4,156 bases of DNA from a virus (Duplodnaviria; Heunggongvirae; Uroviricota; Caudoviricetes): IMG/VR virus record IMGVR_UViG_2671180846_000017, positions 1 to 4,156 of that record; one strand, written 5' to 3'. Numbering within the stretch: the stretch's first letter is position 1; every line of letters begins with the position of its first letter. Position numbers and translations under genes: made by a program. The notes under the pieces are model-generated. The model did not search any database and was not told where the DNA came from. It saw only the letters and a program-made list of their open reading frames with translations. Shown here one piece after another: positions 1 through 4,156 of this stretch.

Positions 1-266
1 TGGCGCTTATTGTTCGCCAGCAGCGGCTGAAATTAAGCCTGTCCGGAAGGCTGGCGATAAAGATTATTGCCGAGCCACCGGATAAGCGCCGCCGTGACCT
101 GGACAATATTCTGAAAGCGCCACTGGATGCGCTGACGCATGCGGGAGTGTTAATGGACGATGAGCAGTTTGATGAAATCAATATCGTTCGTGGTCAGCCA
201 GTATCTGGTGGACGTCTGGGGGTGAAGATTTACCCCATAATGCTTGAAGGGCTGGTCAAAAAATGA
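1..266 (+). CDS. rusA: RusA-family Holliday junction resolvase, C-terminal portion (5' end lies outside the window)
   Basis: Reading in the frame starting at nt 3 gives ...IKIIAEPPDKRRRDLDNILKAPLDALTHAGVLMDDEQFDEINIVRGQPVSGGRLGVKIYPIMLEGLVKK, ending at TGA 264-266. This aligns with the C-terminal half of E. coli RusA as recalled from memory ([32 protein letters not shown]...KGGRLELTI), including the acidic DLDN and DD catalytic positions. Its stop overlaps the start of the next gene (ATGA, 263-266), as expected for a rusA-Q pair in lambdoid phages. Confidence 0.85.
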   Translation, partial: ALIVRQQRLKLSLSGRLAIKIIAEPPDKRRRDLDNILKAPLDALTHAGVLMDDEQFDEINIVRGQPVSGGRLGVKIYPIMLEGLVKK

Positions 267-1084
267 AACTGGAAGATTTACCGAAATACTACTCCCCAAA
301 ATCCCCCGGCCTGACTGATGCATCGGCCTCAACGTCGAAAGATACGCTGAGTATCACTGATGTGATGGCCGCGCAGGGCATGACACAGAATTGGGCTGAG
401 ATGGGGTTTTCTGCGTTCCTTGGGAAAATGGGCATTAGTATGAATGACAGAGAGCGGGCAACAGAATTGCTGACAGAATATGCACTCAGTCGGTGTGATC
501 GCGTGGCGGCGTTAAGAAAACTCCCGGCAGAAATAAAACCGGCAGTGATGCGTATTATGGCTTCGTATGCGTTTGAAGATTATGCCCGTAGCGCGGCGAG
601 CAAAAAACAGTGCCCCTGTTGTCACGGAAAAAAATTTATTGAAAGCGAGGTTTTTACAAACAAGATCCAGTATCCGGATGGTAAGCCGCCAGTGTGGGCA
701 AAGTGCACAAAAGGCGTGTATCCGTCTTACTGGGAGGAATGGAAAAAAGTCAGGGAGGTGGTAAAAGTTGCCTGTCCGGAGTGTGGAGGGAAGGGGGAGG
801 TTTCCACCGCCTGTAAAGATTGTCGTGGGCGCGGTGTTGCCATTCATCGTGAAGAGTCGGTAAAACGTGGTATGCCTGTTATCAGAGACTGCCAGCGTTG
901 TGGTGGTCGTGGCTATGAAAGATTACCTTCAACGGAGGCATTTAATGCCATATGTAATGTAACCGATGCCATATCTCTTGATACATGGAAAAAAACAGTT
1001 AAACGTTTTTACGATACGCTGGTGGTGCAGTTTGATATTGAAGAAGCATGGGCAGAACAACAACTGAAAAAGGTGACCAGATAG
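263..1084 (+). CDS. Q: Late-gene antitermination protein Q (lambda Q family) with expanded Cys-rich zinc-binding region
   Basis: A 273-aa ORF that is collinear with lambda Q as recalled from memory: YYSPKSP vs FHSPKSP, TDVMAAQGM vs TDVMAAMGM, FLGK vs FCGK, YAFEDYARSAAS vs FAYADYCRSAAT, CQRCGGRGYERLPSTEAF vs CGRCKGVGYSRMPASAAY, TWKKTVKRFYDTLVVQ vs TWSRTVKPLYDALVVQ, and a C-terminal VTR in both. It sits immediately downstream of rusA and immediately upstream of a lambda-like pR'/qut. It is about 65 aa longer than lambda Q because of an insertion in the zinc-finger region. Confidence 0.85.
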   Translation: MKLEDLPKYYSPKSPGLTDASASTSKDTLSITDVMAAQGMTQNWAEMGFSAFLGKMGISMNDRERATELLTEYALSRCDRVAALRKLPAEIKPAVMRIMASYAFEDYARSAASKKQCPCCHGKKFIESEVFTNKIQYPDGKPPVWAKCTKGVYPSYWEEWKKVREVVKVACPECGGKGEVSTACKDCRGRGVAIHREESVKRGMPVIRDCQRCGGRGYERLPSTEAFNAICNVTDAISLDTWKKTVKRFYDTLVVQFDIEEAWAEQQLKKVTR

Positions 1085-1089
1085 CTTTG

Positions 1090-1129
1090 TTGATTTTTCC
1101 CGAATCTGTGGTAAATTTGCCCTAACGAT
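1090..1129 (+). promoter_or_regulatory. Late promoter pR' with Q-utilisation (qut) / sigma70-dependent promoter-proximal pause element
   Basis: -35-like TTGATT (1090-1095), 16-nt spacer, extended -10 TGgTAAATT (1109-1117). The segment GGTAAATTTG...AACGATGGG (1110-1132) closely matches lambda pR' (GGGTAAATTTGACTCAACGATGGG, from memory). By the same spacing the predicted transcription start is A1124, and the -10-like pause-inducing AACGAT lies at 1124-1129. It is positioned directly after the Q stop codon. Confidence 0.6.
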
Positions 1130-1164
1130 GGGCGTTTTATGCCTGACGTTAGAAGATTTTTTAC

Positions 1165-1188
1165 ACCCGTCGCCAGGCGGGTTTTTTT
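1165..1188 (+). terminator. Intrinsic (rho-independent) terminator, tR'-like, downstream of pR'
   Basis: GC-rich hairpin ACCCG (1165-1169) / CGGGT (1178-1182) with loop TCGCCAGG, followed by a run of seven T (1182-1188). It lies about 60 nt downstream of the predicted pR' start, matching the lambdoid arrangement in which Q-modified RNA polymerase reads through tR'. Confidence 0.6.
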
Positions 1189-1291
1189 ATGACTGAAATC
1201 ACGCCAGTACAGTAAACGCGCTGGTGGTTGTGAATACCGGTCTTTCAGCTTGCTGGCTTTTTCGACAAGAGTTATTGGTGTGTCACGTTAA

Positions 1292-1684
1292 CCGGAAAAA
1301 GGAAAGTTTGAGAAACGCGATCTGGCACAGGCGGTTATTAATGCTGCCTACCTGGTGGCCTGTGCAGATGGTGAATGTGAGGCTTCCTAGAAAGCGAAGA
1401 TCGAACAGGTACTGCGTAATCAGCCTGCGCTGTCCGCGTTTACGTCAGAAATTAATGCGATTAGCGCAACCATTATCGGTCAGCTGGATACGAACTTTAA
1501 AATTGGTCGTCGTGCGGCGTTACGTGAGATCGAGGATGTGAAACACGATACGCGTGAAGCGGAAGATGTGCTGGATGTGGCGGTGGCCATTGCGGAGGCA
1601 GACGGCGAAATTGAGCCGGAAGAGCGCAAGGTGCTGGAAGAGATTGCCGGTGTTCTGGGTCTTCGTCTGGAGAATCACCAGTGA
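1292..1684 (+). pseudogene. TerB-family (tellurite-resistance TerB-like) gene remnant: N-terminally truncated with an in-frame amber codon
   Basis: A single frame translates as PEKGKFEKRDLAQAVINAAYLVACADGECEAS*KAKIEQVLRNQPALSAFTSEINAISATIIGQLDTNFKIGRRAALREIEDVKHDTREAEDVLDVAVAIAEADGEIEPEERKVLEEIAGVLGLRLENHQ*. It carries two ADG-acidic TerB-type motifs and aligns with E. coli TerB from memory (KKFMQGTVAVCARIAVASDGVSSEEKQKMIGFL...AVAKSDGNFDDDEKSAVREIAIALGF). The TAG at 1388-1390 falls where TerB has Glu. The frame is closed by TAA at 1289-1291 with no ATG between that stop and the TAG, and the roughly 25 N-terminal residues expected upstream are absent from this frame. Confidence 0.55.
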
Positions 1685-1797
1685 CGGTAAAACTGCGCCT
1701 GGCTGTGGCTGCACTCCTGCTGTTTCTGGTGGTGATGGTGGATTTCACCAGCAGAATCATGTCGGTGCTGGCGGATGGGGTGCTGGTCTGCGGCATT
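1681..1797 (+). CDS. Small hydrophobic (signal-peptide or transmembrane) protein, N-terminal part only; 3' end lost in the N-gap
   Basis: GTG start at 1681 overlaps the TerB-remnant stop (GTGA, 1681-1684), with GGAG 8 nt upstream (1669-1672). Translation is MTVKLRLAVAALLLFLVVMVDFTSRIMSVLADGVLVCGI..., a basic N-terminus followed by a hydrophobic helix, using E. coli-preferred codons (CTG, GTG, GCG rich). The reading frame runs into the N run at 1798, so its length and C-terminus are unknown. Confidence 0.35.
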
Positions 1798-1847
1798 NNN
1801 NNNNNNNNNNNNNNNNNNNNNNNNNNNNNNNNNNNNNNNNNNNNNNN
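1798..1847. other. Run of 50 N (assembly gap or masked sequence of unknown true length)
   Basis: Directly visible: 50 consecutive N characters. The ORFs that the six-frame track shows crossing it (poly-X) are artefacts. Confidence 1.
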
Positions 1848-2012
1848 CAAAAGTGTTGTTTCTGTTTTTCTCAAACTATCATCGTTATCCCTTTATTTCC
1901 GGCTGCGCATGGCGTGGCCTTTTTTTACGACCAGCCACTGGCAGATGGCCATCCTGTAATTTGATTCCGGTTCCGGCTTTTTAACTCTGTTCCTGTACAC
2001 GGGAGAAATTCG

Positions 2013-3950
2013 ATGTCGATTAAACATTATGATGTTGTCAGGGCGGCGTCGCCGTCAGACCTTGCGGAAAAGCTGACACAAAAACTGAAGGAGGGGTGGC
2101 AGCCATTTGGCAGCCCGGTGGCCATCACGCCTTATACTCTGATGCAGGCCATTGCGGCGGAAGGTGATGTCACCACACCTGTGTTGGTGAAGCCGTCGGA
2201 TGGAGAAGGCACAGTAATCAGCGCCACCAGAGACCCGGAGTATTACTTTGTTGTGGTTCTGGCGGGGCAGTCAAACAGCATGGCATATGGTGAAGGCCTT
2301 CCGCTGCCGGAGACATATGACCGTCCGGACCCGCGCATTAAGCAGCTGGCGCGTCGCAGTACGGTGACACCGGGCGGTGTCGCCTGTAAATATAACGACA
2401 TCATTCCGGCGGACCATTGTCTGCATGATGTGCAGGACATGAGCCGCCTTAACCATCCGAAAGCGGACCTGTCAAAGGGGCAGTACGGAACCGTGGGGCA
2501 AGGGCTGCATATCGCCAAAAAATTGCTGCCGTTTATACCGGCGAATGCGGGCATTCTGCTGGTTCCGTGCTGTCGTGGTGGTTCAGCGTTCACCACCGGA
2601 GCCGATGGCACATACAGTGACGCGAGTGGTGCCTCGGAGAATTCAACCCGCTGGGGTGTGGACAAGCCGCTGTATAAGGACCTTATCGGTCGAACAAAAG
2701 CAGCACTGAAGAAGAATCCGAAAAATGTGCTGTTTGCCGTGGTGTGGATGCAGGGGGAATTTGATTTTGGCGGTACGCCGGCAAATCACGCAGCACAGTT
2801 TGGTGCGCTGGTTGATAAATTCCGTGCAGACCTGGCGGATATGGCAGGTCAGTGCGTCGGTGGCTCTGCTGGCGGTGTTCCCTGGATCTGTGGAGATACG
2901 ACGTATTTCTGGAAGCAGAAGAACGAATCCTCGTACCAGACGGTGTACGGCAGCTACAAAAACAAAACGGAAAAGAATATCCATTTCGTACCGTTCATGA
3001 CCGATGAGAACGGGGTGAATGTGCCGACGAACAAACCGGAAGAAGACCCGGACATTCCGGGTATCGGATATTACGGTTCGAAATGGCGTGACAGCTCAGC
3101 CACCTGGACGTCACAGGACAGGGCGAGCCATTTCAGCGCCTGGGCACGCCGTGGGATTATTTCCGACCGTCTGGCAACGGCGATTTTGCGCCATGCGGGA
3201 AGAGTGGCGCTAAACGCGGGGGCATCATCGACAGTATCAGAGGTGCGCCCGTCATCGCCTTCCGGTGCAGAAGCCACAGGCGTCACAACACTGCTCTCTT
3301 ACCTTGCCAGCGAGTCAGAGGGAAGCCTGAAAGTACAGGGATGGTCAGCCAGTGGCGGCAGGGCAGAAGTGGTCAGCGATGCGGAGGGAACCGGAGGTAA
3401 GGCAGTGAAGCTGACCAAGGAAGCCGGTAAAAGCAGCTGGGTGCTGGAGTACGCCGCGGGCAACGGTGCGGCTCTGTTACAGAAAGGGGGGCAGATTCGC
3501 TGCCGCTTTAAGGTTTCGGGAGCGCTGGCTGCGAACCAGTATGTTATGGCGTTTTACTGGCCGGTCTCTTCACTGCCACAGGGCGTTGCCCTGACCGGAG
3601 ACGGGGGGAATAACCTGCTGGCAGCGTTCTACATCCAGACAGATGCAAAAGACCTGAATGTGATGTACCACAATGCGAAAGTGGCGACAAACAACCTGAA
3701 ACTGGGAACCTTTGGCGCATTTGATAACGAATGGCATACGCTGGCTTTCCGCTTTGCCGGGAATAACAGCCTTCAGGTGACGCCGGTTATTGATGGTCAG
3801 GATGGCACACCGTTCACGCTGACGCAGTCACCGGTCAGTGCATTTGCGGCGGATAAACTGCATGTGACAGACATTACCAGGAATGCGACTTACCCGGTAC
3901 TGATAGACAGCATTGTGGTGGAAGTGAACAGCACAGACACTGCGGCATGA
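2013..3950 (+). CDS. nanS-p: Prophage-encoded sialate O-acetylesterase, NanS-p type (DUF1737 N-terminal domain + SASA/SGNH esterase domain + C-terminal putative carbohydrate-binding domain)
   Basis: A 645-aa ORF with SD GGGAG 7 nt upstream of the ATG. It has the GQSNS motif (aa 85-89; Ser87 codon at 2271-2273) and WMQGEFD (aa 245-251), both characteristic of the sialate O-acetylesterase (SASA / YjhS-NanS) family. The N-terminal approximately 60 aa resemble a DUF1737-type domain. Size and three-part architecture match the NanS-p esterases found between the stx locus and the lysis genes of lambdoid/Stx prophages. It ends with a double stop, TGA TAA (3948-3953). Confidence 0.85.
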   Translation: MSIKHYDVVRAASPSDLAEKLTQKLKEGWQPFGSPVAITPYTLMQAIAAEGDVTTPVLVKPSDGEGTVISATRDPEYYFVVVLAGQSNSMAYGEGLPLPETYDRPDPRIKQLARRSTVTPGGVACKYNDIIPADHCLHDVQDMSRLNHPKADLSKGQYGTVGQGLHIAKKLLPFIPANAGILLVPCCRGGSAFTTGADGTYSDASGASENSTRWGVDKPLYKDLIGRTKAALKKNPKNVLFAVVWMQGEFDFGGTPANHAAQFGALVDKFRADLADMAGQCVGGSAGGVPWICGDTTYFWKQKNESSYQTVYGSYKNKTEKNIHFVPFMTDENGVNVPTNKPEEDPDIPGIGYYGSKWRDSSATWTSQDRASHFSAWARRGIISDRLATAILRHAGRVALNAGASSTVSEVRPSSPSGAEATGVTTLLSYLASESEGSLKVQGWSASGGRAEVVSDAEGTGGKAVKLTKEAGKSSWVLEYAAGNGAALLQKGGQIRCRFKVSGALAANQYVMAFYWPVSSLPQGVALTGDGGNNLLAAFYIQTDAKDLNVMYHNAKVATNNLKLGTFGAFDNEWHTLAFRFAGNNSLQVTPVIDGQDGTPFTLTQSPVSAFAADKLHVTDITRNATYPVLIDSIVVEVNSTDTAA

Positions 3951-3951
3951 T

Positions 3952-3987
3952 AAAAAAACCGCCAGCGACAGGAATGGACGCTGGCGG
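3952..3987 (-). terminator. Perfect 9-bp GC-rich hairpin with a U-tract on the minus strand only; candidate intrinsic terminator for leftward transcription
   Basis: CCGCCAGCG (3959-3967) and CGCTGGCGG (3979-3987) are exact reverse complements around an 11-nt loop. On the + strand the hairpin is preceded by A7 (3952-3958) and followed by TGGTGATACC with no T-tract. On the - strand it is therefore followed by U7, the canonical intrinsic-terminator layout. Confidence 0.4.
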
Positions 3988-4085
3988 TGGTGATACCTAT
4001 GGAGAAAAAATAAAGGAACGATACTTTCGTACTCTGGTTTTTTAATGAAAACAGTTCTTATTGTCAACAATAACGGAAAGAAATT

Positions 4086-4156
4086 ATGACATTTCTGAAC
4101 CAGTTAATGCTGTACTTCTGTACGGTGGTCTGTGTGCTGTATCTCCTTTCGGGTGG
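4086..4156 (+). CDS. Small membrane protein, N-terminal part only (window ends); probable lysis holin by position
   Basis: ATG at 4086 with a weak SD (GGAA, 4075-4078). Translation MTFLNQLMLYFCTVVCVLYLLSG... is strongly hydrophobic. It sits immediately downstream of nanS-p, where lambdoid phages place the holin gene S. The holin assignment is positional; I do not recognise the sequence itself. Confidence 0.45.
   Translation, partial: MTFLNQLMLYFCTVVCVLYLLSG

Follow-up and report, generated by a model that had tools for sequence, protein, structure and literature searches.

Introduction

Q antiterminators are assigned to families by their Pfam domains, with PF03589 corresponding to Q-lambda, PF06530 to Q21, and PF06323 to Q82 (Yin et al. 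2022, PMC9388147). In lambda, the Q-binding element (QBE) is located in the promoter spacer region (PMC9388147; PMC6266700). A late switch of the same family is laid out in the P22 record BK000583, which annotates a late promoter (P late/P R'), a lambda-like qut, the 5' nucleotide of the RNA, and a terminator (t late/t R') that is antiterminated by the gene 23 protein. In Q933-type Stx phages, a pR'-tR' RNA named StxS binds Hfq and regulates rpoS and stx1 (PMC7547250). A Q protein of 273 amino acids is listed as 'uncharacterized' in the literature on STEC, where nanS-p of Stx2a phages was reported to rise by 1-2.4 log upon mitomycin C treatment (PMC10462455). Small RNAs of the STnc100/PasD and Esr41/EcOnc33 kinds have been found as abundant Hfq-bound RNAs in ordinary uninduced cultures (PMC4104026; bioRxiv 10.64898/2026.05.13.724894).

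Here we compare with these systems a window of 4,156 nucleotides, which is the whole stretch at positions 1 to 4,156 of IMG/VR virus record IMGVR_UViG_2671180846_000017. The window represents the late-regulatory part of a lambdoid prophage. Positions 1090-1188 very probably constitute the late-gene cassette, made up of pR', a Q-binding region, a pause element, and tR', of the Q gene that ends at position 1084.

Layout of the window and distribution of the module

The window carries the following genes and gene fragments.

1-266: 3' end of rusA (PF05866)
263-1084, plus strand: Q antiterminator gene, 273 aa, Q-lambda family (PF03589; match to chain Q of 7UBM)
1322-1684, plus strand: TerB-family pseudogene, cargo 3' of tR' (PF05099, E 1.3e-7; in-frame TAG at 1388-1390)
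From 1681, into a run of N at 1798-1847: DUF3927 ORF
1848-1926, plus strand: tail and terminator (1901-1919 plus T7) of an STnc100/PasD-type sRNA gene (terminator scan)
2013-3950, plus strand: nanS-p sialate O-acetylesterase, a late-operon passenger gene (DUF1737, SASA, and DUF6645 domains)
3950-4033, minus strand, convergent: candidate for a small RNA resembling Esr41 (28 bits and E 0.021 against the Rfam Esr41 model, under the gathering score)
4087-4156, plus strand: start of the holin gene (lysis cassette), a predicted target of Q read-through

The nanS-p gene (2013-3950) and the holin gene (from 4087) are late genes 3' of the cassette on the same strand; the RefSeq annotation of O26:H11 strain 11368 has a class II holin at the homologous position. 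The TerB-family gene is annotated in RefSeq as a pseudogene with an internal stop, and because this cargo is a pseudogene the copy may sit in a decaying prophage.

Positions 1-1797 match prophages of O26:H11, O103, and other STEC at 99.9%, and at least 474 complete E. coli genomes match 80% or more of this part, module included. STEC genomes carry up to 14 related places each, many of them within cryptic prophages. A 201-bp stretch around the cassette is 100% identical in the Stx2a phage Stx2_EH1910, deposited as a complete phage genome, and there a methylase gene, tRNA genes, and stx2AB follow it downstream. The left and right halves of the window map to different prophages in one strain, so that a scaffold join is possible; such a join is without effect on 1090-1188.

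The Q gene belongs to the Q-lambda family

The Q protein matched PF03589 with an E value of 4.7e-50, and a phmmer search of PDB sequences matched it to the Q-lambda structure 7UBM chain Q with an E value of 9e-41. Its residues 1-113 and 182-273 align to residues 1-113 and 116-207 of Q-lambda. When the window Q was used as a tblastn query, lambda Q and P22 gp23 both appeared at 41% identity. Judged by these matches together with the assignment of PF03589 in PMC9388147, the protein belongs to the Q-lambda family, as the initial annotation had called it. A reading of PF03589 as the family of the phage 82 Q is ruled out by PMC9388147 and the 7UBM match.

Relative to lambda, the window Q has an insertion of 68 amino acids at the start of the zinc-ribbon 'arm', which adds two CxxC motifs. 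The four zinc cysteines of lambda, corresponding to C184, C187, C210, and C213 of the window protein, are invariant. The 273-aa reading frame is intact in 76 of 78 related loci.

Promoter and pause element

The −35 hexamer of the predicted promoter starts 6 bp past the Q stop codon. The elements that follow on the plus strand are these.

1090-1095: pR' −35 hexamer TTGATT (invariant in 49 distinct clade sequences; 16 bp 5' of the −10)
1096-1111: promoter spacer TTTCCCGAATCTGTGG, candidate Q-binding element (97% conserved in the clade)
1109-1110: extended −10 TG, inside the spacer
1112-1117: pR' −10 hexamer TAAATT (identical to lambda and P22)
1118-1123: discriminator TGCCCT, variable (75% conserved)
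1124-1132: predicted start A1124 and sigma-dependent pause element, AACGAT then GGG (AACGATGGG; identical to lambda and P22)

The −10 and pause region had been described as nearly identical to that of lambda pR', and the comparison bears this out. The strings GGTAAATTTG and AACGATGGG are found at 1110-1119 and 1124-1132, and the lambda counterpart reads GGGTAAATTTGACTCAACGATGGG, with 20 of 23 bases identical to the window from GGTAAATTTG through GGG. Written in full, the window has TTGATT-N16-TAAATT-TGCCCT-AACGATGGG and lambda has TTGACT-N17-TAAATT-TGACTC-AACGATGGG. The geometry from the −10 to the pause element is thus the same in both, with a discriminator of 6 nt. The first A of AACGAT is taken as +1, and the same A is annotated as +1 in P22.

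We estimated how often the composite motif would arise by chance in a window of this base composition. TAAATT-N6-AACGATGGG occurs once in the window, and 0.01 chance matches are expected even with 2 mismatches allowed. A generic promoter scan did not list the site, which scores 8 of 12 matches at a threshold of 9; lambda pR' scores 9 of 12. Hexamers of a sigma-70 promoter are present and are 98-100% conserved, and positions 1090-1117 are predicted to form such a promoter. On the lambda geometry, and from the fit of G(+8)...T(+17)G(+18) to the elemental pause consensus, a pause is expected near +16/+17 (1139-1140).

Terminator and leader RNA

Downstream of the pause element lie the following features, also on the plus strand.

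1133-1156: leader body (97% conserved)
1157-1162: U-rich tract (U6), 5' of the terminator
1165-1188: tR' intrinsic terminator, stem ACCCGTC/GGCGGGT, loop GCCA (terminator scan; T7 tract at 1182-1188)
1124-1188: predicted Q-independent leader RNA of about 65 nt (62-66 nt in 63 of 64 scored clade loci)

The terminator scan called ACCCGTCGCCAGGCGGGT at 1165-1182, followed by T7, and the tR' hairpin has a dG of −12.0 kcal/mol. From A1124 to the end of the T-tract at 1188 there are 65 nt, and lambda gives 193 nt by the same measure. The initial annotation had placed the terminator about 60-65 nt past A1124 and had quoted 194 nt for the 6S RNA of lambda; both figures agree with ours. Folding of 1124-1188, which it had proposed as a check, is in keeping with a hairpin followed by U7 and gives −21.3 kcal/mol (z = −2.8) for the complete leader.

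A second predicted hairpin, at 1124-1150, keeps its pairing in 93.5% of alignment cells with almost no compensatory change. We rejected it as an established structure on the grounds of the near-zero count of compensatory changes and the uncompensated variants of the pause hexamer. Throughout the family, a CGTT with complementarity to the 5' AACG is retained; its position is +20-23 in lambda, P22, and HK225, and +24-27 in SfV, Qin, and the window. Because the pause-hexamer variants are uncompensated, an RNA hairpin formed by CGTT and AACG is not established.

Several other candidates in this region were set aside. A second 'terminator-like' call at 1118-1134 straddles +1 and has the variable discriminator as its 5' arm, and we take it as chance. 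A 22-codon ORF from the ATG at 1128 is broken in frame by 1-nt indels in relatives, and its lambda and P22 versions have 2 and 6 codons. An Rfam search of the leader gave no family match, the best being suhB/mmgR with 20.5 bits and an E value of 0.6; this hit, together with the Leu/Trp leader models that appeared in relatives, was regarded as sub-threshold noise.

Conservation among relatives

We collected 80 IMG/VR loci that encode a Q protein of the window type at 90-100% identity, and aligned the region 3' of Q. The alignment yielded 39 distinct sequences of 125 nt and 49 distinct sequences of 350 nt. Conservation, measured as the mean majority-base fraction, was as follows.

−35 hexamer: 1.00
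Promoter spacer: 0.97
−10 hexamer: 0.98
Discriminator: 0.75
Pause hexamer: 0.94
GGG: 1.00
Leader body (+10 to +33): 0.97
Terminator stem arms: 0.98 and 0.90
Terminator loop: 0.77
T-tract: 0.98
Downstream flank: 0.69
Q coding sequence, last 150 nt: 0.86

The discriminator is 6 nt long throughout, with a single exception of 7 nt. The natural forms of the pause hexamer are AACGAT, AATGAT, AACTAT, AATAAT, AAAGAT, AATTAT, and AACAAT. Within the window clade it changes at positions 3 and 4 only, and positions 1, 2, 5, and 6 are invariant along with GGG. When the window and SfV clades are taken together, pause positions 2, 5, and 6 and GGG are invariant, as are T1, A2, and T6 of the −10 hexamer. What both clades leave untouched are the decisive −10 and pause positions, GGG, and the core of the terminator. 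Positions 2 and 6 of the pause hexamer are the equivalents of the −11A and −7T captured by sigma region 2 in −10 recognition.

In the tR' stem, one C-G pair is replaced by a compensatory A-U pair, and the C-to-T change seen in the window itself is tolerated as a G-U wobble. Other clades have unrelated hairpins at an equivalent distance from the start. The sequence elements, the pattern of their conservation, and their fixed linkage to the Q gene are direct observations, and the pattern is what one would expect if promoter, pause element, and terminator all function, and not if the likeness were accidental. The leader body is more conserved than the 3' coding region of Q (97% vs 86%).

Leader length in the Q-lambda family

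The initial annotation had set the short leader against the 6S RNA of lambda, implying that a leader of about 60 nt is an oddity. This does not hold within the family. In P22 the start at 37887 and the terminator at 37917-37945 give a leader of about 59 nt. HK225 and mEp237, whose Q proteins are 57-63% identical to the window Q, have leaders of 55 nt, and the HK225 record marks the terminator; SfV, with a Q of 250 aa, has a 65-nt leader and an annotated terminator. In E. coli K-12, the same cassette follows ydfT in the cryptic prophage Qin. Leader lengths among IMG/VR loci were distributed as follows.

Window clade: 62-66 nt in 63 of 64 scored loci
SfV clade: 63-65 nt in 72 of 77
Phages with a Q 99-100% identical to lambda Q: 189-193 nt in 36, and 55-59 nt in 38

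The long 6S RNA of lambda is one variant among several, and a short leader is at least as common.

The spacer stays with Q when leaders are exchanged

Each Q clade has a promoter spacer of its own, which remains with Q when leaders are swapped. The spacer regions read as follows.

Lambda and P22: TTGACTT(A/T)TTGAATAAA(A/G)TTGGG
SfV and Qin: TTGCATTTTTCAAAAAATATGG
Window and HK225: TT(G/T)A(T/C)TTTTCC(C/G)GAATCTGTG

The AACGATGG joint is where Q clades exchange modules of leader and terminator, which measure 55, 59, 65, or 193 nt. One locus (L232) has an SfV-type Q and spacer joined to the 193-nt leader of lambda, and another (L115) has a lambda-type Q and spacer joined to a 55-nt leader of HK225 type. 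Within the window clade, the sequence splits into at least 3 unrelated modules right past the T-tract. Many Stx2 phages that have other Q genes carry the window's terminator and the first ~100 nt of its flank (1161-1260) at 87-91%, and in those phages the homologue of 1161-1260 is the 3' end of the StxS region.

The covariation of spacer and Q, together with the exchange of leaders, fits a Q protein that would read the DNA of the spacer and the paused complex and would be indifferent to the identity of the terminator. The spacer at 1096-1111 is accordingly our candidate for the Q-binding element. Because this spacer differs from the QBE of lambda and the window Q carries the 68-aa insertion in its arm, the geometry of the contact between Q and DNA may differ from that in lambda. 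We regard the comparison of spacers and leaders as modestly useful for studies of lambdoid mosaicism, and unsurprising to a specialist.

Downstream genes and their dependence on induction

It had also been predicted that all genes downstream in the window depend on induction. As far as the late genes that encode proteins are concerned, this is in line with the reported induction of nanS-p (PMC10462455), but the prediction does not extend to two genes of small-RNA type that have apparent promoters of their own.

The first, of the STnc100/PasD type, lies between tR' and nanS-p. Its body is mostly hidden by the run of N at 1798-1847, which stands in for about 200 nt present in close relatives. 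In an unmasked relative (L013), an STnc100 (RF02076) match of 102 bits at 3093-3259 runs into the sequence found at 1848-1926 of the window, and in O26 strain 11368 a match of 148 bits is present at the homologous place, followed by AgvB. PasD/STnc100 was also considered as the identity of the leader and rejected, the Rfam match being ~700 nt further downstream, after the DUF3927 gene, and not at 1124-1188.

The second, the Esr41-like candidate, lies between nanS-p and the holin gene. It has its own promoter-like site, TTGACA-17-TAAAAA (4064-4036), and a terminator. Its position is that of the Hfq-bound EcOnc33 in Sakai Sp6, and of PasA/PasC.

Proposed mechanism and alternative readings

Promoter activity, pausing, Q binding, and read-through at this locus are what we infer from the family (PMC9388147), with an analogue in Stx phages (PMC7547250). 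RNA polymerase holoenzyme would start constitutively at about A1124. Region 2 of sigma-70 would then re-bind AACGAT/GGG on the non-template strand, so that the complex would be held near +16/+17. Without Q, polymerase would escape the pause and terminate at the hairpin and U7 (1165-1188; end at 1186-1190), releasing an RNA of ~65 nt. After induction, Q would bind the spacer at 1096-1111 and load on the paused complex, which would become resistant to terminators. Polymerase modified in this way would pass tR' and transcribe the cargo region, nanS-p, and then the lysis genes.

The alternative that survives best is compatible with this late switch. It holds that the 65-nt pR'-tR' RNA (1124-1188) serves in lysogens as a constitutive, Hfq-binding, trans-acting sRNA similar to StxS. 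StxS provides the precedent, and the terminator and flank of the window are homologous to its 3' end; however, the terminator module alone is shared, and the StxS body and seed region are absent. The hairpin with its U7 end, preceded by the U6 tract, resembles an Hfq-binding module, but the leader has no Rfam family match, and HnrS, a prophage sRNA of 66 nt, maps elsewhere, between the Rz and terminase genes. The conservation of the leader body from +10 to +33 exceeds that of the Q coding sequence and extends beyond the pausing region of lambda; it could, however, reflect needs at the level of DNA, either pause escape or Q loading. The free swapping of leaders between clades argues against an essential, clade-specific function of the RNA. 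We consider this role for the leader rather unlikely. If true, it would mean that sRNAs arising as by-products of late promoters are general to prophages of the Q-lambda family and not peculiar to Q933 Stx phages, and its reach would be hundreds of EHEC and EPEC genomes, and even Qin of K-12.

A second alternative, to which we give about half that weight and which we deem improbable, takes the cassette as an inert relic in a defective prophage, in which Q is absent or dead and tR' keeps the late region silent. The TerB pseudogene, the up to 14 related places per STEC genome with many in cryptic prophages, and the cassette of the cryptic Qin prophage, homologous to this one and with a weakened T-tract (TTTTG), are all in keeping with it. 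Nevertheless, the Q reading frame is intact here as in nearly all of the related loci, the functional positions of the promoter, the sigma-dependent pause element (SDPE), and the terminator are selectively conserved relative to neighbouring bases, and an identical module lies upstream of stx2a in the complete-genome phage Stx2_EH1910.

That there is no promoter at all, the hairpin being the terminator of an early transcript that includes Q and the likeness to lambda pR' being fortuitous, is hardly credible: the generic promoter scan did pass over the site, but the motif has a chance expectation of 0.01, the −35, −10, SDPE, and GGG are invariant while adjacent bases drift, and the arrangement is the very one annotated in P22 as P late, qut, and t late.

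The reading of 1090-1188 as the late-gene cassette of the adjacent Q gene has its practical value in annotation, as it marks the start of Q-dependent late transcription in a type of prophage that is common in O26, O103, and other STEC. The Q-lambda assignment, together with a defined pR', pause element, and tR', offers concrete sites to mutate in studies of toxin expression.

Comparison with known systems

StxS of the Q933-type Stx phages (PMC7547250) resembles the predicted leader in being an RNA that ends by termination of transcription from a constitutive late promoter in lysogens, and its terminator hairpin, T-tract, and downstream flank are homologous to 1161-1260 of the window. The StxS precursor is 258 nt long and is processed to 74 nt (PMC7547250), and the Q protein there has 144 amino acids and belongs to another family. 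For the StxS body and seed region we found no counterpart in the window, where only the terminator hairpin and flank align. HnrS (EcOnc10-12; 66 nt, a multicopy prophage sRNA, PMC13502914) was rejected as the leader since it lies in the wrong place; the coordinates of EcOnc10 and EcOnc11 put them between the gene for the Rz endopeptidase and those for terminase, on the other strand from the late genes (Sp10, Sp12). The Sakai EcOnc list, which excludes peaks within 100 nt of a genomic feature (PMC7547250), has no Hfq peak 3' of a Q gene of the Q-lambda family.

Lambda shares with the window the Q family and 20 of 23 bases from GGTAAATTTG through AACGATGGG. It differs in its leader of 193-194 nt, in its long compound terminator hairpin of −26 kcal/mol, and in its promoter, which has TTGACT as the −35, a 17-bp spacer, no extended −10, and another QBE sequence.

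SfV, Qin of K-12 (ydfT/quuQ), HK225, and mEp237 are like the window in having a long-form Q of the Q-lambda family, of 250-276 aa, and the same cassette, with leaders of 55-65 nt. HK225 and mEp237 share the window spacer TTTCCCGAATCTGTG, although the terminator of HK225 differs. The spacer of SfV and Qin differs from that of the window and reads TTTTCAAAAAATATGG, and the T-tract of Qin is degraded to TTTTG.

The late region of P22 (gene 23, pR', qut, and tR') matches the window in the Q family, TAAATT, the 6-nt discriminator, A as +1, and the AACGATGG pause element, and both have an intrinsic terminator and a short leader, of 59 nt in P22 and 65 nt in the window. P22 differs in its promoter spacer and in a terminator hairpin that is unrelated in sequence, and its gp23, of 207 aa, is without the 68-aa arm insertion of the window Q. 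The cassette is an uncharacterised member of a textbook late-switch system, whose short-leader layout is already annotated in P22, SfV, and HK225.

Modular organization of the leader region

The body of the predicted leader RNA (1133-1156) was 97% conserved among relative loci carrying a window-type Q antiterminator gene, compared with 86% for the 3′ end of the Q coding sequence. When the window leader was compared with those of lambda, P22, HK225, SfV and the K-12 Qin prophage, a CGTT whose sequence is the complement of the 5′ AACG was found throughout the Q-lambda family, at +20-23 or +24-27; the hairpin that this pairing would form had no supporting compensatory changes. Two IMG/VR loci are natural chimeras. 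L232 (2020) carries the 193-nt lambda leader behind an SfV-type Q and spacer, and L115 (1902) carries an HK225-type 55-nt leader behind a lambda-type Q and spacer. The shared sequence AACGATGG serves as the joint at which the Q/Q-binding element module and the leader/terminator module recombine.

Continuity of the window and candidate small RNA genes

Downstream of the leader, the following features were identified.

1322-1684, plus strand: TerB-family ORF, broken by an in-frame TAG at 1388-1390
1848-1926, plus strand: tail of an STnc100/PasD-type sRNA gene with a strong terminator (1901-1919 and T7)
3950-4064, minus strand: candidate Esr41-like small RNA (Esr41 match of 28 bits with E 0.021, under the gathering score)

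In RefSeq, the homologous TerB-family locus is likewise marked as a pseudogene, interrupted by an internal stop. A run of 50 N from position 1798 stands in for about 200 nt present in close relatives, comprising the end of a DUF3927 ORF and most of the STnc100 (RF02076)/PasD-type sRNA gene. STnc100 scored 102 and 148 bits in these relatives (loci L013 3035-3312 and L010 5356-5545), and in L013 a promoter-like TTGATT...TTAAAA lies upstream of the gene. Judging from sequence matches, the window may have been assembled by joining scaffolds across prophage repeats, because its two sides, 1-1797 and 1848-2100, both match strain E2865 at 99.9-100% identity but map to separate positions on the chromosome, near 2.51 Mb and near 1.24 Mb. 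In IMG/VR loci L013-L023, a contiguous arrangement across the N-run position was found, with 97% identity.

The Esr41-like candidate is convergent with the sialate O-acetylesterase gene nanS-p, and has a promoter-like site (TTGACA-17-TAAAAA) and a terminator consisting of a hairpin and T7. Its position is the reported place of the Hfq-bound EcOnc33 (Sakai Sp6), and also of PasA/PasC.

Comparison with lambda, SfV and Qin

The window Q protein differs from that of lambda in its arm.

602-805: 68-aa insertion in Q (residues 114-181), located where the zinc-ribbon arm of Q-lambda starts

The arm with its insertion contains four CXXCXGXG-like repeats (C116/C119, C171/C174, C184/C187 and C210/C213), which resemble the DnaJ two-zinc module (30.6 bits, below the Pfam cutoff). 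The arm insertion is shorter in the Q of SfV and Qin. Since the lambda arm touches the far end of the Q-binding element and sigma region 4, the DNA-contact geometry of the window Q may be different from that of lambda. The cryptic Qin prophage of E. coli K-12 has retained the same cassette of promoter, AACGATGGG and terminator after ydfT (L253 2860-2960, minus strand of the record), with cspF and cspB in the cargo slot and a T-tract shortened to TTTTG.
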